From Eubacteriales bacterium (GTDB lineage Bacteria; Bacillota; Clostridia; Oscillospirales; CAG-272): a stretch of 64,000 nt of DNA. Below, in pieces: positions 20,105-35,283 of the stretch. The notes below the pieces were generated by a model that did no database searches, was not told the origin of the DNA, and saw only the letters and a list, made by a program, of their open reading frames with translations. The translations under genes were made by a program, and so were the position numbers. Position 1 is the stretch's first letter. Every line of letters begins with the position of its first letter. The stretch is from assembly GCA_045649045.1 (NCBI GenBank), contig JAZRPF010000051.1, positions 14,471-78,470 of the forward strand, read 5' to 3'.

Positions 20105-20171
20105 AATTACCGATTGGCTATTAGTTTTTACCAATTGGTAAAATTGCATAATTATTATTTGTTATATCCCA
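20105..20171. repeat. Right imperfect terminal inverted repeat of the TA cassette; includes a 16-bp perfect palindrome
   Basis: AATTACCGATTGG (20105-20117) is the reverse complement of 19198-19210. TTTACCAATTGGTAAA (20127-20142) is a perfect palindrome. TTATATCCCA (20162-20171) is the reverse complement of 19169-19178. Confidence 0.6.
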
Positions 20172-20181
20172 TTTTATTTAG

Positions 20182-21264
20182 TTAAAATATATAACAGGCG
20201 TCGCCGAAGGAAAAAAACCGATACTTCTCTTTCACCGCTTCTTCGTAAGCATTCATGACAAAATTTTTGCCTGCGAATGCAGAAACAAGCATCAGAAGCG
20301 TGCTTTGCGGTAAATGAAAATTGGTAATTAGCCCATCAATTGCGCGAAAACGGTAACCAGGATAGATGAAAATACCCGTTTCCCCTTCCATTGCACACAA
20401 TTTCCCATCTTTATCGGTTGCACTTTCAAGAACACGACAGGTAGTTGTGCCAACAGCAATAATTCTGCCGCCTGCGGCTCGACGGTGCTGAATTTCCGCA
20501 ACCGTTTCTTCGCTCAAAATGAAATGCTCTGTATGCATATGATGGTCAGTGATTTTCTTTTCCTTGACAGGACGGAATGTCCCAAGTCCAACATGAAGCG
20601 TAACTTCTCCGTAACCAATGCCTCGATTGCGAATATCTGTCAGAAGTTCCCGCGTAAAATGCAATCCTGCCGTTGGTGCCGCAGCCGAGCCCTCGGTTTT
20701 GGCATAAACAGTCTGATAGCGTTCTTTTTCCTTGAGCTTCGTGGTAATATACGGTGGCAACGGCATTTGTCCAACTGCATCCATCGCATCATAAATCGAA
20801 GTATATTTTGAAGTATCATAAGAAAGTCGCACCATGCGGTTTCCGTCATCAAGCACCTCGGTAATCTCGCCTGTCAAGACTGCATTAAAATCAAACCGAT
20901 GTCCTTTCTTTGCTCGCTTACCCGGGCGCACCAATGTTTCCCACTCGCCGCTTTCATGCATACGCAAAAGAAGAAGCTCAATCGGTGAGCCTGTATCCGC
21001 GCGAACGCCAAGCAATCGTGCAGGGATGACCTTTGAAGAATTCACGACCAGCATATCCTCGGGACGCAAATAGTCGATAATCTGATGGAAATGCCGATGT
21101 GTCACACTTTGCGATGCGCGGTCAAGCACCATCAGCCTTGACATATCGCGTTTTTCTGTAGGTGTTTGTGCAATCAGCTCCTCGGGCAATTGATAATCAA
21201 AATCTTCGGTTGACAAATCGGTTTCTATTCGTTCGTTGATAATAACATCCTTCAATGCAGTCAT
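20182..21264 (-). CDS. queA: S-adenosylmethionine:tRNA ribosyltransferase-isomerase
   Basis: Contains FDYQLPEELIAQTPTEKRDMSRLMVL...TAGLHFT...VGTTTCRVLES. The ATG at 21264 has an AGAGGTG RBS. Confidence 0.95.
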   Translation of the reverse strand: MTALKDVIINERIETDLSTEDFDYQLPEELIAQTPTEKRDMSRLMVLDRASQSVTHRHFHQIIDYLRPEDMLVVNSSKVIPARLLGVRADTGSPIELLLLRMHESGEWETLVRPGKRAKKGHRFDFNAVLTGEITEVLDDGNRMVRLSYDTSKYTSIYDAMDAVGQMPLPPYITTKLKEKERYQTVYAKTEGSAAAPTAGLHFTRELLTDIRNRGIGYGEVTLHVGLGTFRPVKEKKITDHHMHTEHFILSEETVAEIQHRRAAGGRIIAVGTTTCRVLESATDKDGKLCAMEGETGIFIYPGYRFRAIDGLITNFHLPQSTLLMLVSAFAGKNFVMNAYEEAVKEKYRFFSFGDACYIF

Positions 21265-21369
21265 GCACACACCTCTTCTTTTTATATCATATACTTGTAT
21301 TAGTATACTACATTCGAATCATAATTGCAAGAACAATCCGTAAAACTTTTTCCCCGAAAGGACTTTTTC

Positions 21370-22307: not shown

Positions 22308-23978
22308 TTATGCCTGCGGTGCAACCCAAACCGAAACCGAAACACCGCGGTTTGTCATGGAAACAACCGCACCTTGGGTGTTGATAACACCATCAGGTGT
22401 CACATTCTGCGCCAAATTGTCAAGCGCGCCGTTATCACGCAACCACCAATACATACCGTCTTCAGATGCTACAACCTTTTTGTTACCATCTGCGTCAACA
22501 ACTTCTATAGGATTCGAGGTAGCTGTTCCCTTGCGAACACAAAGAATCTCCTCTTCAAAAAGTCTTGCAAGCTCGGATGCGCTGAAGATGAAGAGCTTAT
22601 CACCTGCAACACCGATATCATTGCGAATGTCAACCTGCGCTTGCAGTTCTTCCTCTGTAAAGGCAGTCACAAAATCGTTTATCAGCCACTCACGAAGAGA
22701 GGATGCGTTCCAATCAACTGCAACAGGTGCATTGTTATACGGAAGCTTTTCAACAGCATAGAACATGGTCAACAGATAAGCATCGCCCTCCTGTGCAACA
22801 ACTGTCCAGGTAAGCGGCTCCTTGGTTGTTGCTTCACCGTCCTGATCATAACGGCCATAGAGGAAATTGATTGAAGCGTTCTGGTCATTGTTCCATACAG
22901 CATCCATCATTGTCAAAATATTGACACCGCCACTGAACAAAACACTTTGCTCATCTGTCCAGTTCTTGAATGCATAAGCGCCAACAGATTCCAAGCCCTC
23001 GGGTAAGGTCATTTCCTTAATGGAAGTGCCGTTTGCAAAGACATATGCACCAAGTGTGGTGACTGTATCGTCGAAACGAACCTCTTCAATTTCGGAAATA
23101 TAGGGTGCCCACGGAACAATCTTTTCCATGTAATCATACATAGCGCCCGTGCCATTGATATCAAGACGATGATCTTCATAGTAACACCAAGTCAGATCAT
23201 CACCACAACGACCGTCGGCAAGAATCTTTGTATATGTAATGATAGCCGTTGTATCATCAGTCATTGTACCTTCGAGGTTGACGCCGTCAACACGGTAACC
23301 TGCAACCGAAGGACACTCTACGGTATAATTGGTATCGCTGATATAGGTTGTAACCTCAGCCGGCTTCACTTCAAGACCATTTGCATAAAGATGCTGAACT
23401 GTCAAATCAAAATAGCGGCTGAATACAACAGTAATTTCTCTGCTTGTAAAATAATCCTCGGCAATACCTGCATTTGCAAGCATCTGATTCCAAAGAGACT
23501 CACTACCGAAATAGCGAACGGTTTTAAGTGCTGTGCAGTTATCAAAAAGATTCTGTTCTGCGCTTTCCTCATTTTTTCCAAGGTTCTTGACAGTAGAAGG
23601 AATGCTGATTTCGGTTAAAGCCTGTGCTTTATCAGATGCAAACGCATTGATGTCAATACCGATAACAGTCTTATTATCCTGAATATCGGGGATGATAACA
23701 GTCGTACCCTCAAAGGTACCGAGACCGCTCACCGTGCAGGTCGTGCCTGTCTTGTTCACACCGTATTCAAGCCCTTCGGACGCGTTCAAGGTCGTCGGCT
23801 TTTTAATTTCTTCCTCGTCACCTGCCCCTTCACCACCGGTTTCATCACCGTCCTGTGAAGAGGATTCTGACGGATCGTCTGTCGTCGGCTTTTCGTCTTC
23901 ATCGCCACACGCAACAAAAGAGCCAAGCATCAACAGCACAAGTGCCATCGCCGTTATCTTCATCCAAATGTTTCGCAT
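22308..23978 (-). CDS. Lipoprotein with leucine-rich-repeat-like N-terminal region and DUF6273-like C-terminal domain
   Basis: The lipobox is LMLGSFVACGDE, followed by an acidic low-complexity linker. The C-terminal pattern DKLFIFSASELARLF...YWWLRDNG resembles DUF6273-type domains. The family call is made from memory only. Confidence 0.5.
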   Translation of the reverse strand: MRNIWMKITAMALVLLMLGSFVACGDEDEKPTTDDPSESSSQDGDETGGEGAGDEEEIKKPTTLNASEGLEYGVNKTGTTCTVSGLGTFEGTTVIIPDIQDNKTVIGIDINAFASDKAQALTEISIPSTVKNLGKNEESAEQNLFDNCTALKTVRYFGSESLWNQMLANAGIAEDYFTSREITVVFSRYFDLTVQHLYANGLEVKPAEVTTYISDTNYTVECPSVAGYRVDGVNLEGTMTDDTTAIITYTKILADGRCGDDLTWCYYEDHRLDINGTGAMYDYMEKIVPWAPYISEIEEVRFDDTVTTLGAYVFANGTSIKEMTLPEGLESVGAYAFKNWTDEQSVLFSGGVNILTMMDAVWNNDQNASINFLYGRYDQDGEATTKEPLTWTVVAQEGDAYLLTMFYAVEKLPYNNAPVAVDWNASSLREWLINDFVTAFTEEELQAQVDIRNDIGVAGDKLFIFSASELARLFEEEILCVRKGTATSNPIEVVDADGNKKVVASEDGMYWWLRDNGALDNLAQNVTPDGVINTQGAVVSMTNRGVSVSVWVAPQA

Positions 23979-24169
23979 CACAATACCGACCTCTTATTTA
24001 GAGGCTTTCCTTTCTTGTTCTGACAGAAGCGCTGCCGTTTATCATCAAAAGACTTTTCTGTCGTTTGTTTGCGCCGAGGTGGGTGCCTCAAACGCATCTG
24101 ACAGGCAATCATAAAACGCCTACAAGTATTATATCATGTCTTTCGTCATTTTGCAATACCTAATATGAA

Positions 24170-25213: not shown

Positions 25214-25280
25214 TCACTTTGCAGTCTCTTCAATCGCAACGGCAACAGCAACCGTCATACCAACCATGGGGTTGTTACCT
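25214..25280 (-). pseudogene. Orphaned native 3' end of the GGGtGRT-family gene (last ~21 codons plus stop)
   Basis: The minus strand reads ...GNNPMVGMTVAVAVAIEETAK*. It matches the end of the intact gene at 34276.. (…GNNPMVGMTVAVAVAIEEASK*) over the 54-bp repeat and then diverges. Confidence 0.75.
25227..25280. repeat. att direct repeat, left copy
   Basis: TCTTCAATCGCAACGGCAACAGCAACCGTCATACCAACCATGGGGTTGTTACCT, identical to 34289-34342. Confidence 0.9.
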
Positions 25281-25295
25281 AAGTCATATATCCTT

Positions 25296-25447
25296 GTGGA
25301 TTGGTCTTAATTCGTCTTAATTTGAACGTATATGTTCAAGAACAACAGCTATATATCACGATGGCTTATCTGTATTTGTCTTAATTTGTTTCGATATGTT
25401 TTGATTAGGTTTTGAGAAAAGCGTGGATTTTTTGCGGATAAATCCAC
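25296..25447. repeat. Candidate integrase arm-type sites (GTGGATT(T)) and GTCTTAATT repeats near the left end
   Basis: GTGGATT at 25296-25302. GTGGATTT at 25423-25430 and its inverse AAATCCAC at 25440-25447. GTCTTAATT occurs three times between about 25304 and 25385. Confidence 0.6.
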
Positions 25448-25463
25448 CGATTTATACCGTGGC

Positions 25464-26771
25464 TTAATTACCCGCAAATATTGCATTTATGGCTTGCTTT
25501 CCCTCTGCTCTCATACTGTCGTCAAGGTGAATATATACGATTTTTGTTATTTTACAATCCTTATGTCCCAAACGCTCACTAATATACTTATCGGGCAACC
25601 GCGCGGAATACAGCATTGAAGCGTGAGTATGTCGCAAAGAGTGATATTTGAAGGCGGGGTATATATCCTTATGGATAACGCTTGATGTGTGCTGCATAGT
25701 GCGCAAAGAGATATAAGTCCCGTCTTTACGGACACACAAAAAGTTTATAGCATTTCCGTTTGCTGTTCGGTCTATGGGATTAGGTACGGCATTATCGGGA
25801 TTATTTACACCGCTAAAGGCAAGCGGATACGTGGCGTAATAGCTATTATAATATTCTCCATAATAGATTTTCATAGCTTCTTGCCGCCGTTTTTCCTCGC
25901 GGAGCAACCGCACCATACTGTCACTTAAATCTATCACTCTAAAGGAATTATATTTAGGGTTAGTGAAATACCAAAAGCCCTCACCGCTCTCTGCACTACC
26001 GTTATTTATAATCTTGTCGCTTTCACTTCGCGTTCCATCCTCTTGCCATTGGATTTGACGGTTCACGGTCAATGTTTTAGCTTCCAAGTCTATATCTTCC
26101 CACGTTAGCGCGAATGCTTCTCCAATACGCAACCCGCACTCATAGCCGAGCCGTAAAGGTATGTGAGAGGGGTGTGTTTCGGGAAACCGCTCCATAATGC
26201 TTTTGATAGCTGACGGCGGTATAGTATCTCTTGTGTCGGTACGGGTAGGTGTGACGGGTGTTCTGTTTCTCGGTATCTTTAACCGCACCGCAGGGGAAAA
26301 GAGTATGTAATGATTATCTACGGCGTAGTTAAAGCTCTTTGAGAGAATGCCCGTAAGACTTGATAATGTATTGATAGAATATCCTTTATCGTACATATCA
26401 AGAATAAATTTCTGCAAATCATCCTTTGATATTGCTTTTAACCGATAGCTACCAAGCGCGGGTTTAATATGATTTCGCACCCGCTTTTGATAGTTCAAAA
26501 TTGTTGCGGGTTTCAAATCCACCTTACAATCATTTTCCATCCATATGTCAAGAAAATCGGCATAGGATAGATCAGCAGATTGCAAGACTTGTCCCGTGTG
26601 TTCATATAGCTGTTGCGCCTTAATTCCTGCGCGTTTTGCTTCCGCTTTAGACTTAAATCCGCGCTTTGTGTACTGTTTGCGCTTTCCGTTTTCGGATGCG
26701 ATTTCAAATCTATATTCATAAGATATAGAGCCGTCTTTGAGTTCGTGTTTTCTTATATTGATGTCACCCAT
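25464..26771 (-). CDS. int: Tyrosine site-specific integrase with N-terminal arm-binding-type domain
   Basis: The C-terminal catalytic pattern is ...HSLRHTHASML...LGHKDCKITKIVYIHL. The basic N-terminus is GSISYEYRFEIASENGKRKQYTKRGFKSKAEAKRAG, as in Tn916-type integrases. Confidence 0.9.
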   Translation of the reverse strand: MGDINIRKHELKDGSISYEYRFEIASENGKRKQYTKRGFKSKAEAKRAGIKAQQLYEHTGQVLQSADLSYADFLDIWMENDCKVDLKPATILNYQKRVRNHIKPALGSYRLKAISKDDLQKFILDMYDKGYSINTLSSLTGILSKSFNYAVDNHYILFSPAVRLKIPRNRTPVTPTRTDTRDTIPPSAIKSIMERFPETHPSHIPLRLGYECGLRIGEAFALTWEDIDLEAKTLTVNRQIQWQEDGTRSESDKIINNGSAESGEGFWYFTNPKYNSFRVIDLSDSMVRLLREEKRRQEAMKIYYGEYYNSYYATYPLAFSGVNNPDNAVPNPIDRTANGNAINFLCVRKDGTYISLRTMQHTSSVIHKDIYPAFKYHSLRHTHASMLYSARLPDKYISERLGHKDCKITKIVYIHLDDSMRAEGKQAINAIFAGN

Positions 26772-26835
26772 AGGTATATCCTCGCTTTCTGCTGATAATT
26801 ATATCATAGCATTTTCTTGTTGCATACTTCAATTT

Positions 26836-27060
26836 TTATGATAATTGCAACTGACATACATTGCTCATATCCTTAAAACTGAAACCCGTATAGCTGTCGA
26901 TAAATTTGTCTATAGAAGCGTTTGATACCTTTAGTCCGCCCAAATCCAAAGCGGATAGAAAACCGTTTGTGATAAGCTCATATACCTTTGCTTTGCTTAC
27001 TCCTAAAAGCTTGCTTGTTTCTGTTACGTTGTATAATTTCTTTGCGTTGATTTCTGTCAT
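26836..27060 (-). CDS. xis: Excisionase-family helix-turn-helix DNA-binding protein
   Basis: LYNVTETSKLLGVSKAKVYELITNGFL is the MerR/excisionase-type HTH. It lies directly upstream of int. Confidence 0.7.
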   Translation of the reverse strand: MTEINAKKLYNVTETSKLLGVSKAKVYELITNGFLSALDLGGLKVSNASIDKFIDSYTGFSFKDMSNVCQLQLS

Positions 27061-27667
27061 ATAATAAATTCATTTCTCCTTAGTTATGTATGCCACTCTT
27101 GATGTAATCAAGATATTGTCCGTAGGACTTGAATGTTGACATTCAACCCATCGGTGAGAAATGAAATGGCTTGTTTTTGGTTAAAATTTGTTAATCTCTA
27201 TCCCTCTCGGAAAACCCTCGAATTATAGGGATGTTTGTTTGTTTTTTTTCCTAAAAAGTGGCTTTTTTTCGTTCTCAGAAACGCTCTCAGTAAACTTGCC
27301 TCTAATAGGGTGTTTTTCGCACTTTTACCCCCTAAAAAACGCCGTTTTTAGTTGTTCTATTTTGTTTTTTCTATGGAGAGTGAAATGCGGTGGTATTTTC
27401 TCCATTTTCCACGCTTGTGTATCGTCGTGGTGGGATACGACGAACACGGCGCGAACCGCGCTCTTGGCTCGGTGTGCCACATAGATAGTAAAGAACTCGT
27501 CTGTGTAATAGACTTGAATACTGCCGTATAATTGAGCGGATTGTGTACATCATTCCGTTTCACAAAATGCAAGTTAAGCTGAGCTATGACCGCTACGGAA
27601 ACACCGAACAGTAGACAGGTATCTATTTCAGCCAAGCGATTATCTCAGTCATAAAGTGCAAGTAATC

Positions 27668-28597
27668 TTAATCTATGCAAAATACGCCCAAGACCTCTAC
27701 TTTTGAGTAGTCGCTACCGCTATAGAGGATATGTGGATTTATGATGATTTTTGCCCCTGCTTTGTGTATCCCATCATAAGCAATGGCACAAAACCGCTCC
27801 AAATGACCGTCAACATCAAACAAAATGCTGTTGTATATTTTCAAAAGCTTGTTAACGTGCGCTACATCGTAGCCGACCATTTCGCAAAAATCCGCTACAG
27901 ATATTAACTCAATCTTGTTTATATCCGTTTCCAAAGGGTTGCGACATATCAAGTTGTATTCGATGTTGATATACGGTAACAGCTTGAACAGATAACCTAA
28001 CTGACGGTCATTCTTTCTTGCTGAGGTAGTATATAATCTGCGGATACCCTCAATATAAAACTTTTGGTGTGCTTTTGTTCGTTGTGCCAAACGCCCACGC
28101 TTGAATATATCGTTGTTTGCAAATATCAATCCGTCCGCTTGCTCGGTTAAATAAATGGGACAAACCTCTTTCAAGAAACGTGATACCGTAGAAGCCGATA
28201 CCCCCAACAATGCGGGCAAGTCTGCGCTTTTGATAGGTGTTCTTTCGCTGAACATCAATTTGTTTTCGTAATTCATATACGTATTGAGATATACAAGGCG
28301 CGTTAAGCTTTCGGGGGAAATGTTTGACAACGGAGCTTGCTTTTTTACAAAGTAAAAGTATCCCAAAGGATCGTTGCACCCTCTCTGCAATCCGCGCAAC
28401 ATTTTTGCTTCTTCAAGTTGTCGTTCAAGCTCTTTTCTCCTTTTGTATTCCTCTTGCTGTTCGGGGGTGTATGTGATACTCCCGACGGGAACGATTGTAG
28501 CTACTGTATCTAATACCGCGCCCGTAGCTCGTTGAACCGCTAATATTTTTCCCGTATATTCTTCCATTACATAGTCATAACCTTTTGCTTCAGTCAT
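27668..28597 (-). CDS. Hypothetical protein, possible replication initiator or winged-helix protein of the element
   Basis: 309-aa ORF with an AAAGGAG RBS and an internal HTH-like segment (LPALLGVSASTVSRFLKEV). The functional call rests on position only. Confidence 0.4.
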   Translation of the reverse strand: MTEAKGYDYVMEEYTGKILAVQRATGAVLDTVATIVPVGSITYTPEQQEEYKRRKELERQLEEAKMLRGLQRGCNDPLGYFYFVKKQAPLSNISPESLTRLVYLNTYMNYENKLMFSERTPIKSADLPALLGVSASTVSRFLKEVCPIYLTEQADGLIFANNDIFKRGRLAQRTKAHQKFYIEGIRRLYTTSARKNDRQLGYLFKLLPYINIEYNLICRNPLETDINKIELISVADFCEMVGYDVAHVNKLLKIYNSILFDVDGHLERFCAIAYDGIHKAGAKIIINPHILYSGSDYSKVEVLGVFCID

Positions 28598-28686
28598 TAA
28601 AAACTCCTTTATAAAATTATGGTTTGATATGCCCTAAAAATATGCTCGTGAGTGGGGCATTTCAATCAAGAGCATTGACGGGGATA

Positions 28687-28884
28687 TTAGTTATCCTCGT
28701 CTTGCTCCGTGCGTTTTTCGGCGTGTGAGTGGCTATTTTCACCGCCTACGCCCGCACGATGCGGGTTCTTACCCATTCTAAAAGGGTACAACGCGCATTG
28801 AAAGCACGTGCACAAACGTACCTCTTTTGGTTGGTCGCAACAGCAATCAAGACAATGCTGTCTTATAGCTTGCATAGGTGTCAT
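28687..28884 (-). CDS. Small Cys-rich (zinc-ribbon-like) protein
   Basis: MTPMQAIRQHCLDCCCDQPKEVRLCTCFQCALYPFRMGKNPHR is a pattern common in phage and ICE accessory regions. Confidence 0.5.
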   Translation of the reverse strand: MTPMQAIRQHCLDCCCDQPKEVRLCTCFQCALYPFRMGKNPHRAGVGGENSHSHAEKRTEQDEDN

Positions 28885-29155
28885 ACCGTCGGTATCTCCT
28901 TTCCGTAATACTCACGGAATATTAAGTAGGTGACGGCAACTGCATAAACGACAAAAAGCGGGTATGCACCTTAAAAAGATATAGCTATCACTATACTTAA
29001 AAGGTATGCACACCCGCTATCAGCAAGGTTATGATATTCCTACTATGAGCAGGAATATGTAAAAACTCAATGCACACTATTCCATTATATCAATTATTAT
29101 ACCACACTTTAACATACTTGTCAATAGGTTTTTGAAAATTTCTCAAAAATATTTT

Positions 29156-29350
29156 TTATTCCTCGCTCTGACTTAACAGCAGATCAATGGCGCGGTTAAT
29201 AAAGGCGTTTACACTCTCCCCGTTCTCTGTGGCGCGTTGCTGTATAAGTTCCTTTTTGCCCTTCTTCACCATAAGGTTAATTCTGTCATACGCGCCCTTG
29301 TTATAATCGTTGTTGTAGCTGATAGTTTTTGCTTTATCCTTATATGCCAT
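29156..29350 (-). CDS. Ribbon-helix-helix (Arc/CopG-like) DNA-binding protein
   Basis: MAYKDKAKTISYNNDYNKGAYDRINLMVKKGKKELIQQRATENGESVNAFINRAIDLLL. The start at 29350 has an AAAGGAGA RBS. Confidence 0.6.
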   Translation of the reverse strand: MAYKDKAKTISYNNDYNKGAYDRINLMVKKGKKELIQQRATENGESVNAFINRAIDLLLSQSEE

Positions 29351-29489
29351 ATCGGTATCTCCTTTTATATCCGTGTGAGTGAAAAGGAACGACACACCTA
29401 AAAACACAGACGGCGTATTTTTCCACGGTGTAAAATATTCCGTCCTCTCGGTTGTGTGCTCTGTTTCTTTTTTATTATATCACAAGTCG

Positions 29490-29580
29490 GAACATTGTGC
29501 AATGTACAAAATGCACAAAAATTCGCAGAAGAACATTGTGCAATGTGCCGATTGACTTCCATTGCTCAATGTGCTATAAT
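29490..29580 (+). promoter_or_regulatory. Promoter (TTGACT 29552-29557, TATAAT 29575-29580) with three ACATTG-nn-CAATGT operator palindromes
   Basis: GAACATTGTGCAATGT occurs at 29490-29505 and again at 29531-29546. A degenerate copy, CCATTGCTCAATGTGC at 29559-29574, lies between the -35 and -10 elements. Confidence 0.6.
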
Positions 29581-29636
29581 GGTATCACAACGGGACGGAC
29601 ACCGCCCCGAATATAAAAGACAAAGGAGATAGAAAA

Positions 29637-29912
29637 ATGTCAGTAAACGAAATGGAAACAAAAATTGCAAGGTTGCAGGAATGGGAAGCAATCGCAGAGG
29701 AAGCAAGAGCAGAAGCGGAAGCGTTAAAGGATGAAATCAAAGCCGAAATGCTCTCCCGCGATACTGAGGAAATGGAAGCGGGGCGTTTCATCATCCGTTG
29801 GACTTCGGTACTTTCTAACCGCTTCGACACTACAAGCTTCAAAAAGGAACACGGCGACCTTTACAAGCTCTATACCAAGCAATCCGCAAGCCGTCGTTTC
29901 AGTATTGCATAA
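29637..29912 (+). CDS. Hypothetical coiled-coil protein of the element
   Basis: 91-aa ORF with an AAAGGAGA RBS. An N-terminal coiled coil (IARLQEWEAIAEEARAEAEALKDEIKAEM) is followed by FIIRWTSVLSNRFDTTSFKKEHGDLY. Confidence 0.5.
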   Translation: MSVNEMETKIARLQEWEAIAEEARAEAEALKDEIKAEMLSRDTEEMEAGRFIIRWTSVLSNRFDTTSFKKEHGDLYKLYTKQSASRRFSIA

Positions 29913-30054
29913 GAAAAAGCCCTTTACAAAAGCCACCGACCAAAGCGACAACGTAAAGAGCTTACCCACCCCCATCACGGAGCGGGTACATATATTATAA
30001 CGTATCCGCTCCTAAAAATCAACATCAAAATTATTGAATTTAGGAGAATTTACA

Positions 30055-30711
30055 ATGAAACAAATAACCAATATGTCCCGCCTTGTCAATCAGCTTGAAA
30101 AGTGCTTCCGTTTGCTCAATCAAGATTTTTTCAACGGCGAGCTTCCAACCCCGATTATTACAGTAATACCCACGCCCAAAGCATACGCCCACTACGTTCC
30201 ATATGATATATGGGATACAAAAGACGATAGCAAGCGCGAGATAAACATAGCAAGCGGAACACTCAACCGCCCGCTTGAAAATGTCATTGCTTCCTTACTG
30301 CACGAAATGGTGCATATGTACAACGATTGTATTCTCAATATCCAAGATACAAGCCGAAACGGTACATATCACAACCGCCAATTTGCCAAACAAGCAGAAG
30401 CACACGGGCTTATTGTTACCCGTTCTGAGAAATACGGATACGCGCACACCGCACCCGCCGACAGTTTGCTTGAATGGGTACTTAATCACGATGAGTTGCG
30501 CGAGATCGAAATTTGCCGTTCTAACCCCTTTTATAACGCCGTAGGAATAGGCACACACGCAAGCAACGGCGGGGCTATATCAACGACCACCGCAAACAAG
30601 AACAGCCACAGCCGACATTATATCTGTCCCTGCTGTCATACCATTGTGCGAGCTACAAAGGTAGTCAACATCATATGCGGGGATTGTATGGAGCGTATGG
30701 AAGAACGCTGA
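30055..30711 (+). CDS. SprT-like zinc metalloprotease domain protein with C-terminal zinc ribbon
   Basis: Carries the HExxH motif LLHEMVHMYN and a C-terminal CPCCHTIVRATKVVNIICGDC. RBS AGGAGA. Confidence 0.75.
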   Translation: MKQITNMSRLVNQLEKCFRLLNQDFFNGELPTPIITVIPTPKAYAHYVPYDIWDTKDDSKREINIASGTLNRPLENVIASLLHEMVHMYNDCILNIQDTSRNGTYHNRQFAKQAEAHGLIVTRSEKYGYAHTAPADSLLEWVLNHDELREIEICRSNPFYNAVGIGTHASNGGAISTTTANKNSHSRHYICPCCHTIVRATKVVNIICGDCMERMEER

Positions 30712-30718
30712 CACAGAC

Positions 30719-30746
30719 GGCGGGGAGAAATCCCCGCCACGTTTTT
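30719..30746 (+). terminator. Intrinsic terminator after the SprT-like gene
   Basis: GGCGGGGA-gaaa-TCCCCGCC followed by ACGTTTTT. Confidence 0.75.
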
Positions 30747-30915
30747 GAAGTTAACATTACAAAAAAATCAAGAGGGGGGATATCGCGCCCTCTCTGTACC
30801 AAAACAGCCCTATCAATATGCAGTATCAAAAGTGCTCGGTAAACTGCTCAAAATGCAGTTTGCCGACAGTACGAAAAGAACCGAAGGAAAGTTTTGCGAC
30901 AAAGGAGATTGAAAA

Positions 30916-31593
30916 ATGAAACAATACGGTTATGCACGTATCAGTACACATAAACAACGAATTGAAAGACAGCTACGCAACATCAAAGCGGAATATCCCT
31001 CAGCGGTCATTTTACAAGACGAATACACGGGAACAAAGCTCTCCCGCCCGTCGTGGGACAAGCTGATGAAGGTTATTAAAGACGGTGATATGATTATTTT
31101 TGATTCTGTATCCCGTATGTCAAGAAATGCTGAGGAAGGGTTTGCGGTATATGAAGCCTTATACAACCGAGGTATAGAGCTTATATTTCTTAAAGAGCCT
31201 CACATAAACACCCAAACATATAAAAAGGCAGTACAGAGCTCCGTGCCAATGACGGGAACGGCGGTCGATTACATCTTAGAGGGTATCAATAAATATCTGT
31301 TAGAGCTTGCTAAAGAGCAAATACGCCTTGCATTTGAGCAAGCGGAAAAAGAGGTTGAGGATTTGCACCAACGTACAAAAGAGGGGCTTATAACCGCCCG
31401 CTTGAATGGTAAACAGATAGGCATACCAAAAGGAACAAAGCTCACGACAAAAAAGAGCGTATCCGCAAAAGAAATCATACGCACTCACTCTAAGGATTTT
31501 GGCGGTACGCTGACAGACACGGAATGTATCAAGCTCGCGGGCATATCGCGTAATAGTTTCTATAAGTACAAGGCAGAGCTACGGGACGAATAA
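30916..31593 (+). CDS. Serine recombinase (resolvase/invertase family)
   Basis: MKQYGYARISTHKQRIERQ... contains the catalytic Ser context. It also has DSVSRMSRN and a C-terminal HTH (GISRNSFYKYK). Confidence 0.9.
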   Translation: MKQYGYARISTHKQRIERQLRNIKAEYPSAVILQDEYTGTKLSRPSWDKLMKVIKDGDMIIFDSVSRMSRNAEEGFAVYEALYNRGIELIFLKEPHINTQTYKKAVQSSVPMTGTAVDYILEGINKYLLELAKEQIRLAFEQAEKEVEDLHQRTKEGLITARLNGKQIGIPKGTKLTTKKSVSAKEIIRTHSKDFGGTLTDTECIKLAGISRNSFYKYKAELRDE

Positions 31594-31596
31594 GAA

Positions 31597-31620
31597 AAGG
31601 GGGATTTCGTCCCCCTTTAG
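31597..31620. terminator. Bidirectional terminator between the recombinase and the convergent GLUG gene
   Basis: AAGGGGGA-tttcg-TCCCCCTT with flanking A/T runs. Confidence 0.75.
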
Positions 31621-31626
31621 TATAGA

Positions 31627-33819
31627 TCACTTTAGTATTGGATATTCTCCGTCAGTCAAAGCCCAAACCGAATCATCCCAAGAAATAATATCTTTATGAA
31701 ATGAAATTGTTTTTATTATTTCCATAGATTTTGCTTGACCAAGTGAATTGGTCGGTTCGGTAGAGTGCTTATCTTTAATGTCAATACTAAAAGATTGATT
31801 TTCATAATAATAACAATTGGCGACAGTTCCGTTGTTGTTATTTCCTACTATTGCACCTGCATTTCCCAGCCAATTCTCCGTAGACAAAAAGATATTACAA
31901 ACAGCGTAACAATTCGCAACGACACTATAATTGCATCCAATCAATCCGCCTACATAAGCAATATCGGATTCAACGTATATATCTCCAATAGCATAACTGT
32001 TGTGTACTCCCCCCTTGCTGTAACCTACCAAGCCGCCACTATATCCACCGCAAGTGGAGTTGGAAACAACCGTACCTTTAGCATAGCAATTCCTAACGGT
32101 TCCATTTCCCGCAATTCCTTCGTGATAGCCTATTAAACCACCAACATAACTTCCATATGAATATTCATTTTGGCTTGTGCTTGTTGCGCTTATATAACCT
32201 GTTGCGTAACATTCGCTTATATCACCTACAGAATTATATGCAACTAATCCACCTGCATAACTATTACTAAATGAGGGAGAAAAACTATATGCTGTTACGT
32301 TACCCGTAGCATAGGAGTTTGATATTTTTCCATCATTATAACCTACAAGCCCTCCAGCATAGCTATAAGAATCAATCATATCATAATCTCCACCAAGAAC
32401 AGTTCCTATACTTGTAGCCGTTGTTGAGCCTGTTGCATAGCAATCTACAATGTGCCCATTATTTAGTTGAATTGTGGTTGTATTATTATACCCTATAAAT
32501 CCACCTACATAGCTGTAACTATCTTTGGTTTGATTGCTTGAATTGGTGGTAGAAGTTACATCGCCACTTGCGTAGCAATTCTCGTAATAGCCACCATTAT
32601 TATAGCCTACAAATCCACCTGCATAACAAAAGCCGTGTTCTTTCTTTGAACTAAATCCGACAACAGAGATTCTTCCCGAAGCAGAACTGTTTGAAAGTAC
32701 AAGATAATTACGAACATCTCCTATCAATCCACCCGCAATACATTCTTTACCCGATTCAGTTATACTTATATTTACAGAGGCAGAGCAGTTCGAGACTGTT
32801 TCTTCTTCGAATACACGCCCAACTAACCCGCCGACATAATTGCAATCATATCCCGAAATTTGGATCGAGCCTGAGGCATAACAATTTTGGAGTATTCCAT
32901 TTCGATGAATACCGAGTAGTCCACCTGCATATATAGTTGTTCCATCAGTTGCACTAACATTTATTGAAAAATTGTCCAGAATTAAATTTTGAATAGTGGA
33001 GCTGTTACTATATCCAAAGAACCCTATATATTTTGAAGGAGCGGTAATCTTAAAATTATACACTCTATGCCCATTACCATCAAACACCCCTGTAAAACAA
33101 TATGTGTTCGATGTTCCGATAGGTTTCCACTCCGCACCACCCAAATCAATATCCGAAGTCAAAACATAATTACCGTTCATTGAAATGTTTTTCAATTCTT
33201 GTGCTGTGGAAATGGTGGTATATGGATAATAGCAATGTGAACACCAATTATCTTTTATGCTATGTTCAGTTTTTTTTATTATTTCTTGCTTAATTATTAC
33301 CGTATTACACACAAAACAACGGCTTCCTTCGGTTAAGCCCGTTTGAGTACAAGAAGCTTCTACGGCAGAATCAATAACTACGGTATGTTCCTTTTTAATT
33401 ACTATTTCTTGTTCTACCAAAACAGCGTTGCAAACAGAGCAATGGCGACCTTCGGTCTTTCCCGATTCTTGACACGTTGCTTCTATCGCGCTATCTATTA
33501 CAATGGTATGTTCAAGTTTATTTATGGTATCGGTTTGTTTGGTATCGCATTTAGAGCAACTGCGCTCTTTTGTGCCTTCTTTTTCACACGTTGCGGTTGA
33601 TATTGTTACCCATTCACCAAAGCTATGTGTGCACACTGTTGGTGTATCATCCGTAGTTGGTGTATCATCAGTAGTCGGCGTATTGTCTGTTACGGGATTA
33701 TTCGTCTGTTGGTTAGTCGTATTGTTGTCTGTATCTATAGGGGGATTATCTGTATTATCACACGCAACTAACACAAATAACAATAGTATGATACAAAGAA
33801 TAGGCAGTATTTTTCTCAT
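31627..33819 (-). CDS. Surface lipoprotein with Cys3-His repeat modules and about ten GLUG-motif repeats
   Basis: The start MRKILPILCIILLLFVLVACDN (lipobox, GGAGGT RBS) is at 33819. It contains a TPTTDD low-complexity stretch, three C-x-C...H modules, and then repeated Y(A/V)GG(L/F)(V/I)G GLUG-type units. Confidence 0.75.
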   Translation of the reverse strand: MRKILPILCIILLLFVLVACDNTDNPPIDTDNNTTNQQTNNPVTDNTPTTDDTPTTDDTPTVCTHSFGEWVTISTATCEKEGTKERSCSKCDTKQTDTINKLEHTIVIDSAIEATCQESGKTEGRHCSVCNAVLVEQEIVIKKEHTVVIDSAVEASCTQTGLTEGSRCFVCNTVIIKQEIIKKTEHSIKDNWCSHCYYPYTTISTAQELKNISMNGNYVLTSDIDLGGAEWKPIGTSNTYCFTGVFDGNGHRVYNFKITAPSKYIGFFGYSNSSTIQNLILDNFSINVSATDGTTIYAGGLLGIHRNGILQNCYASGSIQISGYDCNYVGGLVGRVFEEETVSNCSASVNISITESGKECIAGGLIGDVRNYLVLSNSSASGRISVVGFSSKKEHGFCYAGGFVGYNNGGYYENCYASGDVTSTTNSSNQTKDSYSYVGGFIGYNNTTTIQLNNGHIVDCYATGSTTATSIGTVLGGDYDMIDSYSYAGGLVGYNDGKISNSYATGNVTAYSFSPSFSNSYAGGLVAYNSVGDISECYATGYISATSTSQNEYSYGSYVGGLIGYHEGIAGNGTVRNCYAKGTVVSNSTCGGYSGGLVGYSKGGVHNSYAIGDIYVESDIAYVGGLIGCNYSVVANCYAVCNIFLSTENWLGNAGAIVGNNNNGTVANCYYYENQSFSIDIKDKHSTEPTNSLGQAKSMEIIKTISFHKDIISWDDSVWALTDGEYPILK

Positions 33820-34091
33820 ATTTACCTCCAAATAAAAAGGGTGTGACCTCAATAGAAGTCGCACCCGAAAAACGCAAACTCCTATTGTTGCCACACAATT
33901 TATCAACAAATAAGGATTACTCTCCGTATTCATCAGCGGAATTTGCATTTTTACCAAATTCAAACTGACAAATAGGCAAAAAGGGTATACTTACAAAACC
34001 CTCTATAAAAATAGAGAGCTCACCTTGTGAAAGAATGTTGATTAAATTATGTGGCAGTTACAATTATATCATAAAAACAGCGTTTTGTCAA
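33820..34091 (-). promoter_or_regulatory. Consensus promoter plus ~235-nt structured leader with intrinsic terminator (copy 1 of a conserved leader RNA)
   Basis: All elements below are on the minus strand.
- Promoter: TTGACA (34091-34086), 17-nt spacer, TATAAT (34068-34063).
- P1: GCCACATAATTT (34055-34044) pairs with AAATTGTGTGGC (33901-33890).
- Hairpin: GAATTT-GGTAAAAATGC-AAATTC (33961-33939).
- Terminator: GGGTGCGAC...GTCACACCC plus TTTTTATTT (33866-33830), ending directly before the RBS. Confidence 0.65.
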
Positions 34092-34137
34092 TCCGTTACG
34101 GCAGATTTGAAGGGTGTGGGCGGGATTTGAAAAGAAA

Positions 34138-34193
34138 AAATCCACAGTTTAATCCGCTGTGGATTTTACGTGGATTTTCTGGCTCGTGGATTT
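34138..34193. repeat. Candidate integrase arm-type sites near the right end of the element
   Basis: AAATCCAC at 34138-34145. GTGGATTT at 34159-34166, 34170-34177 and 34186-34193. The same octamer occurs near the left end. Confidence 0.6.
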
Positions 34194-34275
34194 TTCTTTG
34201 TATGGAAAAAGGGCTCTCGATTTGCACCGAAAGCCCTAAAAAATATGATTTTTTGATCTAAAATGAGGTTTTTTC

Positions 34276-35283
34276 TTACTTCGAAGCTTCTTCAATCGCA
34301 ACGGCAACAGCAACCGTCATACCAACCATGGGGTTGTTACCTGCGCCGATGAGACCCATCATCTCAACATGAGCGGGAACAGAAGAGGAGCCTGCGAACT
34401 GTGCATCACCGTGCATACGGCCCATGGAGTCGGTCAAGCCGTAAGAAGCGGGGCCTGCTGCCATGTTATCGGGATGCAGGGTACGGCCCGTACCGCCGCC
34501 CGATGCAACCGAGAAGTACTTTTTACCTGTCTCATAGGACCACTTCTTATAAGTGCCTGCGACCAAATGCTGAAAACGAGTCGGGTTGGTGGAGTTACCT
34601 GTAATCGAAACATCAACACCCTCATGCTTCATGATGGCAACGCCTTCCAGAACATCGTTTGCACCGTAGCAACGAACCTTTGCCTTCTCACCGTCGGAAT
34701 AAGGAACGGTGCGGACAACAGTCAATTCATCTGTATAGAAATCATAGGAGGTTTCAACATAGGTAAAGCCGTTGATACGGGAAATGATGTACGCGGCGTC
34801 CTTGCCAAGACCGTTCAAAATGATTTGGAGAGGCTCTTTACGAACACGGTTTGCCTTCTTTGCAATACCGATCGCGCCCTCTGCTGCTGCAAAGGACTCA
34901 TGACCTGCAAGGAAGCAGAAGCACTTTGTCTCTTCGCGGAGGAGCATTGCTGCCAGATTACCGTGGCCGAGACCAACCTTACGGGTTTCAGCAACAGAGC
35001 CGGGGATGCAGAATGCCTGCAAGCCAATACCGATAGCTTCAGCAGCCTCTGCTGCGGTGGTGATACCCTTCTTAATGGCAATCGCACAACCGAGCGTATA
35101 TGCCCAGCTTGCGTTATCGAAAGCGATGGGCTGAACACCCTTTACGATTTCATCTACATTAATGCCTCTTTTTGCGCAAATATCGCGAGCGTCCTCAAGG
35201 TCAGCGATGCCGTACTCTGCCATGCAAGCCTTGATTTTTTCAATTCTTCTTTCGTATCCTTCAAATTTTACATTGTTCGACAT
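34276..35283 (-). CDS. GGGtGRT-family protein (function unknown)
   Basis: Contains the eponymous motif ...FSVASGGGTGRTLHPDNMAAGPASYG.... The start at 35283 has a GGGAGGA RBS. Its last codons are supplied by the inserted element. Confidence 0.8.
   Translation of the reverse strand: MSNNVKFEGYERRIEKIKACMAEYGIADLEDARDICAKRGINVDEIVKGVQPIAFDNASWAYTLGCAIAIKKGITTAAEAAEAIGIGLQAFCIPGSVAETRKVGLGHGNLAAMLLREETKCFCFLAGHESFAAAEGAIGIAKKANRVRKEPLQIILNGLGKDAAYIISRINGFTYVETSYDFYTDELTVVRTVPYSDGEKAKVRCYGANDVLEGVAIMKHEGVDVSITGNSTNPTRFQHLVAGTYKKWSYETGKKYFSVASGGGTGRTLHPDNMAAGPASYGLTDSMGRMHGDAQFAGSSSVPAHVEMMGLIGAGNNPMVGMTVAVAVAIEEASK
34289..34342. repeat. att direct repeat, right copy (inside the 3' end of the GGGtGRT gene)
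   Basis: Identical over 54 bp to 25227-25280. Confidence 0.9.

Follow-up and report, generated by a model that had tools for sequence, protein, structure and literature searches.

The pyr/PyrR leader of Bacillus subtilis and the S-box (SAM-I) and T-box leaders are three-helix attenuators in which an anti-antiterminator opposes the antiterminator. Here, we describe a leader RNA that occurs in two copies in a 64,000-nucleotide (nt) stretch of DNA (the window) from an Eubacteriales bacterium of the Oscillospirales (CAG-272; GenBank assembly GCA_045649045.1, contig JAZRPF010000051.1, positions 14,471 to 78,470 of the forward strand), with a focus on copy 1, which is read on the minus strand. All coordinates are window positions unless a locus is named. 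The leader shares the logic of the three attenuators (a terminator, a competing antiterminator, and an upstream element that sequesters a strand of the antiterminator) as well as their location, the 5' leader of Firmicutes genes with the terminator directly before the ribosome-binding site (RBS). In contrast to those systems, it has no sequence or structure match in Rfam, its predicted anti-antiterminator is a loop-to-linker pseudoknot relative to the 5'-terminal stem P1 and not the closing stem itself, its promoter is an integral part at a fixed distance, and its interior comes in three size classes.

Other described systems resemble the leader in part. The clostridial cyclic di-GMP (c-di-GMP) riboswitches of types I and II (GEMM) likewise occur in multiple copies, upstream of a mixed set of surface, adhesin, and unknown genes and not of a metabolic pathway, and they too often work through a terminator. 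Unlike them, the leader has a P1 that is long and conserved, a central motif that is rich in A, and the three interior size classes. In riboswitches of the preQ1 and SAM-II types, a 3' tail pairs with the loop of the sensor hairpin and sequesters a strand of the expression platform, as the tail of the leader is predicted to do. The loop-tail helix of the leader, however, is 14 to 15 bp long and computed to be stable without ligand, its sensor is much larger, and the outcome would be routed via a separate antiterminator/terminator pair. The cwpV gene of Clostridioides difficile has an invertible leader switch, and its expression is set by whether the leader forms a terminator. As in the leader described here, the cwpV promoter lies outside a segment that is flanked by inverted repeats and located upstream of a surface-protein gene, but no inversion was seen in 71 leaders, the repeats tolerate G·U pairs as RNA does, and switching here would occur at the RNA level.

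Rfam 15 (4227 models) identified only a tRNA in the whole window at the gathering threshold, and the regions of copies 1 and 2 gave only chance-level matches (20 bits or less) at E values up to 10. There was no match at any leader in the 17 loci with leaders that were searched (L numbers denote loci). As positive controls, the same loci yielded a T-box leader (L021, 7519 to 7767) and a SAM riboswitch (L064, 1566 to 1652), a few kilobases from leaders, as well as tRNAs. We rejected a T-box identity because RF00230 scored 112.5 bits on the true T-box in L021 and matched none of the leaders, and because no amino-acid theme was seen among the downstream genes; with its UGGU, the central loop resembles a T-box only loosely. 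We also rejected c-di-GMP-I and c-di-GMP-II riboswitches, as no GEMM aptamer matched even at E values up to 10. ANTAR-type antitermination uses two tandem short hairpins with hexaloops, the second of which overlaps the terminator; no such dual hexaloop hairpins were seen by inspection of the leader structures, and this candidate was set aside. An interior in three size classes is, moreover, atypical for a single aptamer. A BLASTN search of the leader against phage genomes returned no match. No description of the motif was found in the part of the literature that was searched, including a term search of a human-microbiome structured-RNA survey (PMC8040213), which is no proof of absence. The leader family appears to be previously uncatalogued, and its logic is the one known from three-helix attenuators.

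A leader family with three competing helices

We collected relatives of the two copies by pattern scans. A first scan for CAACAAT-N(4-14)-TGCGTTTTTCGG over viral contigs found a single true leader besides the two copies, namely, L002, which lies on a predicted viral contig. A second scan with the same pattern idea, over one genome per GTDB species, matched at least 118 loci. The true leaders among the matches listed make up at least ∼75 distinct sequences, all from metagenome-assembled genomes (MAGs) of gut or rumen Clostridia, with source labels of Oscillospiraceae, Acutalibacteraceae, Ruminococcaceae, Christensenellaceae, Lachnospiraceae, and "Eubacteriales"; the remaining loci are chance matches in coding DNA of other phyla. 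A covariance model built on the 3' core of the leader (R1) gave 36 to 92 bits for true copies and at most 22 bits for chance matches, and it also picked up divergent copies outside the scan pattern. Several copies occur per genome. An earlier note on the window, made from its sequence, had described a leader in two copies. This 5' leader is indeed genuine and structured; it comprises a promoter of its own, a long P1 that covaries, a central hairpin with a conserved motif, and an intrinsic terminator immediately upstream of the RBS. It is by no means limited to two copies. The leaders fall into three size classes of 142 to 158 nt (short, with copy 2), 159 to 193 nt (medium, with L002), and 196 to 237 nt (long, with copy 1). 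The 3' block recurs throughout the family and the interior differs, in agreement with the suggestion in the earlier note that the 3' switching block is under selection. The family statistics below are mostly over 71 leaders. Counts for P1 come from an anchor-based extraction because alignment of whole long-class leaders with MAFFT mis-registers the P1 5' strand.

All elements of copy 1 that had been noted before were found in place on the minus strand. The promoter consists of the −35 hexamer TTGACA (34086 to 34091), a 17-nt spacer, and the −10 hexamer TATAAT (34068 to 34063). This sigma-70 promoter scored 12/12 in a consensus scan, and the −10 element carries in addition a TG extension (TGaTATAAT, 34063 to 34071). 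The first G of P1 (34055) follows the −10 hexamer after 6 nt and is probably where the RNA begins. Across the family, the distance is exactly 6 nt in 62 of the 71 members, and the TG extension is present in 61. Judged from these sequences, the promoter is an integral part of the leader unit and is held at a fixed distance to P1. The whole leader of copy 1 folds with −80.9 kcal/mol (z = −6.4), and none of 200 dinucleotide shuffles folded equally well.

P1 is formed by the 5' strand GCCACAUAAUUU (DNA GCCACATAATTT; 34044 to 34055) and the 3' strand AAAUUGUGUGGC (DNA AAATTGTGTGGC; 33890 to 33901), with one U·G pair, and is extended by AUCAACA (34036 to 34042) pairing with UGUUGAU (33902 to 33908), as the earlier reading of the DNA (ATCAACA/TGTTGAT) had it. 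Its length across the family is 12 to 19 bp. The first 12 pairs of the 71 leaders comprise 815 Watson-Crick pairs, 29 G·U pairs, 1 C·A pair, and 7 other cells. This 29:1 excess of G·U over C·A indicates that selection acts on the RNA of this strand. At position 3, 45 members have U-A, 15 have C-G, and 9 have G-C, and positions 10 to 12 covary. Divergent copies covary along the entire stem, even in the usually constant core ACACAA/UUGUGU, as seen in L131 (GCUAAACUAACUUA/UAAGUUAGUUUAGC), L064b, L050b, and L052b.

In the sensor interior that P1 encloses, the minimum free energy (MFE) structure of copy 1 contains a hairpin, P2 (GCUCUCUAU-UUUU-AUAGAGGGU, 33998 to 34019), that is also found in related members of the long class. 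The central hairpin, GAAUUU-GGUAAAAAUGC-AAAUUC (33939 to 33961), is evident both in the sequence and in the MFE structure; the DNA version with loop GGTAAAAATGC and the conserved block GCAACAATAGGAGTTTGCGTTTTTCGGGTGCGA, on the same strand, are present as first described. This hairpin carries the motif UUGGUAAAAAYGCA, which is common to all three size classes. Pairing does not account for the near-invariant GG before the A-run, for the mostly constant ACACAA/UUGUGU in P1, or for an AUA bulge after P1. We also weighed and rejected a leader peptide, since the short class has an AUG frame (AUGAGCGAAACUGCG...) whose AUG is, by inspection, missing in the long and medium classes.

Downstream of P1, we identified three helices that share strands. 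The first is the terminator (T), a GC-rich hairpin, GGGUGCGAC-uucuauugag-GUCACACCC (DNA GGGTGCGAC/GTCACACCC; 33839 to 33866; −17.8 kcal/mol in RNAfold), followed by the U-run UUUUUAUUU (DNA TTTTTATTT; 33830 to 33838), which is the makeup of an intrinsic terminator. As noted earlier, it lies directly before GGAGGT-ATG: the RBS GGAGGU occupies 33824 to 33829, and the ATG of the regulated gene is at 33819. A simple terminator scan skipped this hairpin because its loop has 10 nt and the limit of the scan was 8. Across the family, 97.6% of the cells in T are paired, and both sides change in 7 of its 11 pairs.

The second helix, the antiterminator (AT), joins the linker that immediately follows P1 to the terminator apex (family-level strands CAAUNGGAGU and ACUUCNAUUG, usually paired as CAAUCGGAGUU/AACUUCGGUUG). 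In copy 1, these strands are CAAUAGGAGU (33878 to 33887) and ACUUCUAUUG (33850 to 33859), which form 10 bp. The use of the terminator apex in this pairing explains the unusual 10-nt terminator loop. By inspection, the AT form is a single helix of 10 to 11 bp with a loop of ∼20 nt. In the long class, 95.1% of AT cells are paired, compared with 18 to 54% when the strands are slid, and four pairs change on both sides. Compensatory changes are found in L040b (CAAU/GUUG to CGAC/GUCG and GGAGUU/AACUUC to GGAAUU/GAUUAC), in L131 (CAAU/GUUG to GACU/GGUC), and in L123 (CGGAG/CUUCG to CAAAG/CUUUG), as well as in the short-class pairing of L115 (CGAAAC/GUUUCG to CAAAGC/GCUUUG). AT thus shares nucleotides with T, excludes it, and is conserved by covariation, as in a transcription attenuator.

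The third helix, the anti-antiterminator (AAT), had been overlooked in the earlier note. It pairs the central motif and its 3' flank (AAAAAUGCAAAUUCC, 33938 to 33952) with the linker and the U-run after it (GGAGUUUGCGUUUUU, 33868 to 33882), forming 15 bp with −18.4 kcal/mol (RNAduplex) in copy 1. Its 3' strand overlaps the AT 5' strand by GGAGU, so that AT and AAT are mutually exclusive; in the family, AT shares the terminator apex with T and GGAGU(U) with AAT. When run on 35 long-class leaders, RNAalifold returned this helix together with the terminator and not the local central hairpin. Paired cells make up 97.9% of AAT, compared with 37 to 52% when the partner is slid. Its duplexes average −16 to −18 kcal/mol across the three classes, with z = −4.2 relative to shuffled interiors. 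The complementarity is class specific: short-class linkers form duplexes of −17.6 kcal/mol with short interiors, compared with only −12.8 and −11.3 kcal/mol with medium and long ones, respectively. Compensatory C-G to U-A changes join the central AAAAAUGUA with UACAUUUUU in L077b and with UACGUUUUU in L064b, in the segment that the scan pattern held fixed. With P1 enforced, the best P1+T and P1+AT structures have energies of −54.6 and −53.4, −65.3 and −65.4, and −79.8 and −79.5 kcal/mol in the three classes. T and AT are thus computed to be isoenergetic in every class when P1 is closed.

Some units of the family depart from this arrangement. Tandem or orphan units, each with its own promoter and terminator and with no open reading frame (ORF) between them, are found in L050 (1 to 320), L052 (1907 to 2384), L040 (1431 to 1931), L077 (3334 to 3622), and L016 (4157 to 4600), and L050 resembles an array of ∼250-nt repeat units. 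These units could be duplication by-products or stand-alone small RNAs. In truncated copies in L063 (1049 to 1113) and L056 (6414 to 6489), the promoter stands directly before the linker/terminator part, and the entire sensor, including the P1 5' strand and the central motif, is missing; these copies would be without an anti-antiterminator.

Proposed switching mechanism and alternative explanations

We consider it likely that promoter and leader form a self-contained cassette in which the competition of T, AT, and AAT makes intrinsic termination conditional and thereby controls the downstream gene. From these helices, whose mutual exclusivity, conservation, and covariation were observed computationally, we infer where transcription starts, that the leader is OFF by default, in which direction it regulates, and that an effector exists. 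Transcription would begin at the first G of P1, and P1 would then close a sensor domain that differs in size among the classes but always presents UUGGUAAAAAYGCA. Downstream of P1, T with its U-run, AT (CAAUAGGAGU/ACUUCUAUUG), and AAT (AAAAAUGCAAAUUCC/GGAGUUUGCGUUUUU) would compete, and in copy 1 the P1 3' strand could lengthen AT. Formation of AAT would remove the AT 5' strand and tip the balance to termination. The default outcome is most likely termination, because the partner strand of AAT is transcribed earlier than that of AT, AAT contributes about −18 kcal/mol on top of T, and the central motif is exposed at least in part. An effector, which may be a small molecule, a protein, or an RNA, would act on the central motif or the sensor and decide whether AAT forms. 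If AAT were blocked, AT would form before the 3' half of the terminator is made, and the polymerase would read through into the gene. In the window, nothing above chance that could serve as a trans partner complementary to the central loop was found apart from the loops themselves.

More tentatively, the leader may belong to a new class of RNAs that sense a signal, and it may do so as a riboswitch or as the RNA to which a dedicated antiterminator binds. In this wider proposal, which we hold to be possible but rather less than probable, the effector would control the 15-bp loop-to-linker pseudoknot that arbitrates between the balanced AT and T, and one global cue would gate an extensive regulon that spreads horizontally and comprises surface, secreted, and unknown proteins of uncultured Clostridia of the Oscillospirales type in the gut.

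It is important to note that several observations weigh against conditional termination by these helices or against a common cue. AAT is a pseudoknot relative to P1, and with P1 opened, AAT+T is 11 to 21 kcal/mol worse than P1+T, so AAT would depend on three-dimensional geometry. Leaders of one size class have highly conserved AAT and AT strands, and the covariation consists of a modest number of events plus the differences between classes. The sample is biased by the scan pattern, which held GCAACAAT and TGCGTTTTTCGG fixed. Orphan leaders precede another promoter and leader rather than a gene, which is also compatible with a role as a small RNA. Among 61 downstream proteins, we found no functional theme that points to a ligand, and clustering of 564 ORFs from 72 loci revealed no recurrent neighboring regulator, as only leucine-rich repeat (LRR) proteins recur.

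The pairing on which the earlier note had built its switch, between GTGTGGC of the P1 3' strand and GTCACAC of the terminator 3' half, suggests a classical OFF riboswitch, in which a ligand stabilizes P1 and, without ligand, GUGUGGC pairs with GUCACAC and prevents termination. The 7-bp complementarity is real in both window copies (GTGTAGC/GCTACGC in copy 2), and a 7-bp run is present in 38 of the 71 members. Moreover, if the P1 5' strand and the interior are omitted, the 3' part of 72 to 88% of members folds at minimum energy into an extended antiterminator that uses the P1 3' strand (−25.5 kcal/mol for copy 1, versus −17.8 for its terminator). The covariation that had been claimed between the two copies does not, however, extend to the family: the longest complementary run between the P1 3' and terminator 3' strands averages 5.9 bp in cognate and 5.5 bp in noncognate pairs, and the variable P1 base is unmatched in the G and C groups. 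P1, with its 12 to 19 bp, also forms ∼40 nt before its competitor is transcribed and is at least equally strong, which makes a ligand-dependent P1 unlikely, and the model explains neither why the central motif is conserved nor why it can form 15 bp with the linker. We therefore regard an OFF riboswitch of this kind as unlikely. In copy 1, GUGUGGC/GUCACAC continues AT in register across a 2×2 internal loop, and we regard the pairing as possibly auxiliary and not as the main switch. An independent small-RNA gene, whose short product acts in trans by titrating a factor or pairing with other leaders and whose position upstream of genes is secondary, is slightly less likely still. Such a gene would fit the consensus promoter and strong terminator of the unit, its multiple copies per genome, and the orphan and tandem units of L050, L052, L040, L077, and L016. 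Most members, however, have an RBS and a start codon within 10 to 40 nt on the same strand with no promoter between, a covarying antiterminator that is isoenergetic with the terminator would be purposeless in a pure small-RNA gene, and the truncated copies in L063 and L056 retain just the AT/T part beside a gene.

Recent copying could also produce part of the pattern. The leader would then be a portable strong-promoter cassette without conditional function (a constitutive partial terminator, an insulator, or a 5' stabilizer) that is conserved only because it spread recently by duplication and horizontal transfer. The cassette does travel on mobile elements, namely, an integrative element in the window and the viral contig of L002, its 3' block is highly similar across genomes, and a 5'-terminal base-paired stem such as P1 is a known design for stabilizing RNA. 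Against this, there are three size classes with different interiors and class-specific compensatory complementarity, and P1, T, AT, and AAT all show covariation. Together, the G·U bias and the T/AT energy balance in all classes speak for long-term selection on alternative structures rather than recent copying, and we consider such a cassette improbable. Least probable by far is an invertible DNA segment as in cwpV, with the P1 arms as DNA inverted repeats and flipping by a recombinase such as the small serine resolvase at 30916 to 31593, beside copy 1. Inverted repeats do surround a 90- to 200-bp segment between the promoter and surface-protein genes, and flipping would make the AAT strand a copy of its own partner. 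Yet the interior motif UUGGUAAAAAYGCA is forward in 68 and reversed in none of the 71 leaders, which come from different genomes and were seen as assembled sequences rather than reads. The repeat mismatches (29 G·U to 1 C·A) reflect selection on an RNA strand and not on DNA, the central hairpin of the medium class is palindromic, so that inversion would alter little, and no recombinase gene recurs near leaders. We rejected inversion on the basis of orientation and mismatch type. Conditional termination by T, AT, and AAT remains the explanation that we prefer.

Downstream genes, mobile context, and other copies

The gene after copy 1 encodes a 730-amino-acid (aa) lipoprotein (31627 to 33819, minus strand) with an N-terminal Cys-repeat module and GLUG repeats (Pfam Glug, E = 7.6e−39). 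A 778-aa ORF with a TTG start, in frame with this gene, crosses the copy 1 leader (33963 to 33820, minus strand). We rejected the TTG as the start because the ATG at 33819 is preceded by GGAGG, and the open frame through the leader is a coincidence. In most members of the family, an RBS and start codon follow 10 to 40 nt after the U-run on the same strand. Among the 61 downstream proteins, 8 have BspA-type LRRs, 4 have zinc ribbons, and 1 (that of copy 1) has GLUG repeats; the others are singletons or lack a Pfam domain, and many have lipoprotein signal peptides. The idea in the earlier note that the leader travels with this class of surface-protein gene was not borne out, as the downstream genes are heterogeneous. 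Among eight GLUG/Cys-repeat homologues examined with their flanks, a 78%-identical orthologue (L125) and the divergent L131 carry the leader, and the other six do not. The L125 leader is nearly identical to copy 1, and its terminator changes are compensated. On this comparison, the leader is a portable cassette and not the companion of one gene family.

In different genomes, the leader is repeatedly followed by members of a family of small Cys-rich proteins (...CLGNGEQGFECCCDECDYYL-CFPE...), as seen in L069 (1041 to 1268, minus strand), L083 (1674 to 1853, minus strand), L104 (3162 to 3323, minus strand), and L078 (downstream of 209). The N-terminal Cys-repeat module of both window lipoproteins (31627 to 33819 and 58976 to 59926) occurs in >1,000 proteins, in which it is joined to cohesin, dockerin, BspA-LRR, Glug, and further surface domains, and it seems to be a common module of surface proteins in clostridia.

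Copy 1 had been placed on an integrative element, and the surrounding sequence agrees. The element spans ∼9.06 kb (25216 to 34342; interior, 25281 to 34277) and is bounded by att-like 65-nt direct repeats (25216 to 25280 and 34278 to 34342) that are 94% identical, lie 9,062 nt apart, and duplicate the 3' end of a GGGtGRT gene. It encodes a tyrosine integrase (25464 to 26771; Phage_integrase, E = 8.7e−19), and its GC content is 0.37 to 0.44, compared with 0.46 to 0.50 outside. An integrase together with direct repeats that duplicate the target is what characterizes an integrative mobile element. Its other genes include HTH/replication-like and SprT-like genes and the small serine resolvase, and the leader-lipoprotein unit is its last cargo.

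Copy 2 lies on the plus strand (58769 to 58961), with its promoter at 58769 to 58797, P1 at 58804 to 58815 and 58891 to 58902, and its terminator at 58928 to 58951; it is followed by the gene for a 316-aa Cys-repeat lipoprotein (from 58976). It folds with z = −6.35 and scored 80.1 bits with R1. The two copies have the 3' block in common, with a compensatory C-G to U-A change in P1. The 18-nt word of the P1 3' strand and linker has only these two sites in the window, and neither R1 nor a search of the window for this word revealed a third copy there. A gene for a BspA-LRR/MucBP/DUF6273 surface protein (22308 to 23981, minus strand) is without a leader copy, since R1 found two copies only; thus, such surface genes are not all under the control of the leader. 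Elsewhere in the window, a perfect 18-nt palindrome (TTTTACCAATTGGTAAAA, 20126 to 20143) downstream of a queA-like gene (20182 to 21270) contains the central-motif word TTGGTAAAA. The palindrome is probably a terminator or an operator, and the shared word is probably coincidental.

If the proposed mechanism is correct, many abundant uncultured Clostridia of the gut and rumen would switch dozens of unrelated surface and secreted proteins with one portable cassette. The proteins concerned include BspA-type LRR proteins, GLUG and Cys-repeat lipoproteins, zinc-ribbon membrane proteins, and many without a known domain, so that the leader would help to approach the roles of many uncharacterized genes. 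It would be a new RNA family for catalogues of the Rfam type, and its compact design of promoter, sensor, and switch could serve as a genetic part for Clostridia. Its presence on integrative elements and on a predicted viral contig would mean that a regulatory RNA is transferred together with its cargo genes, and the identity of the effector would reveal a global signal that governs surface remodeling in the host.

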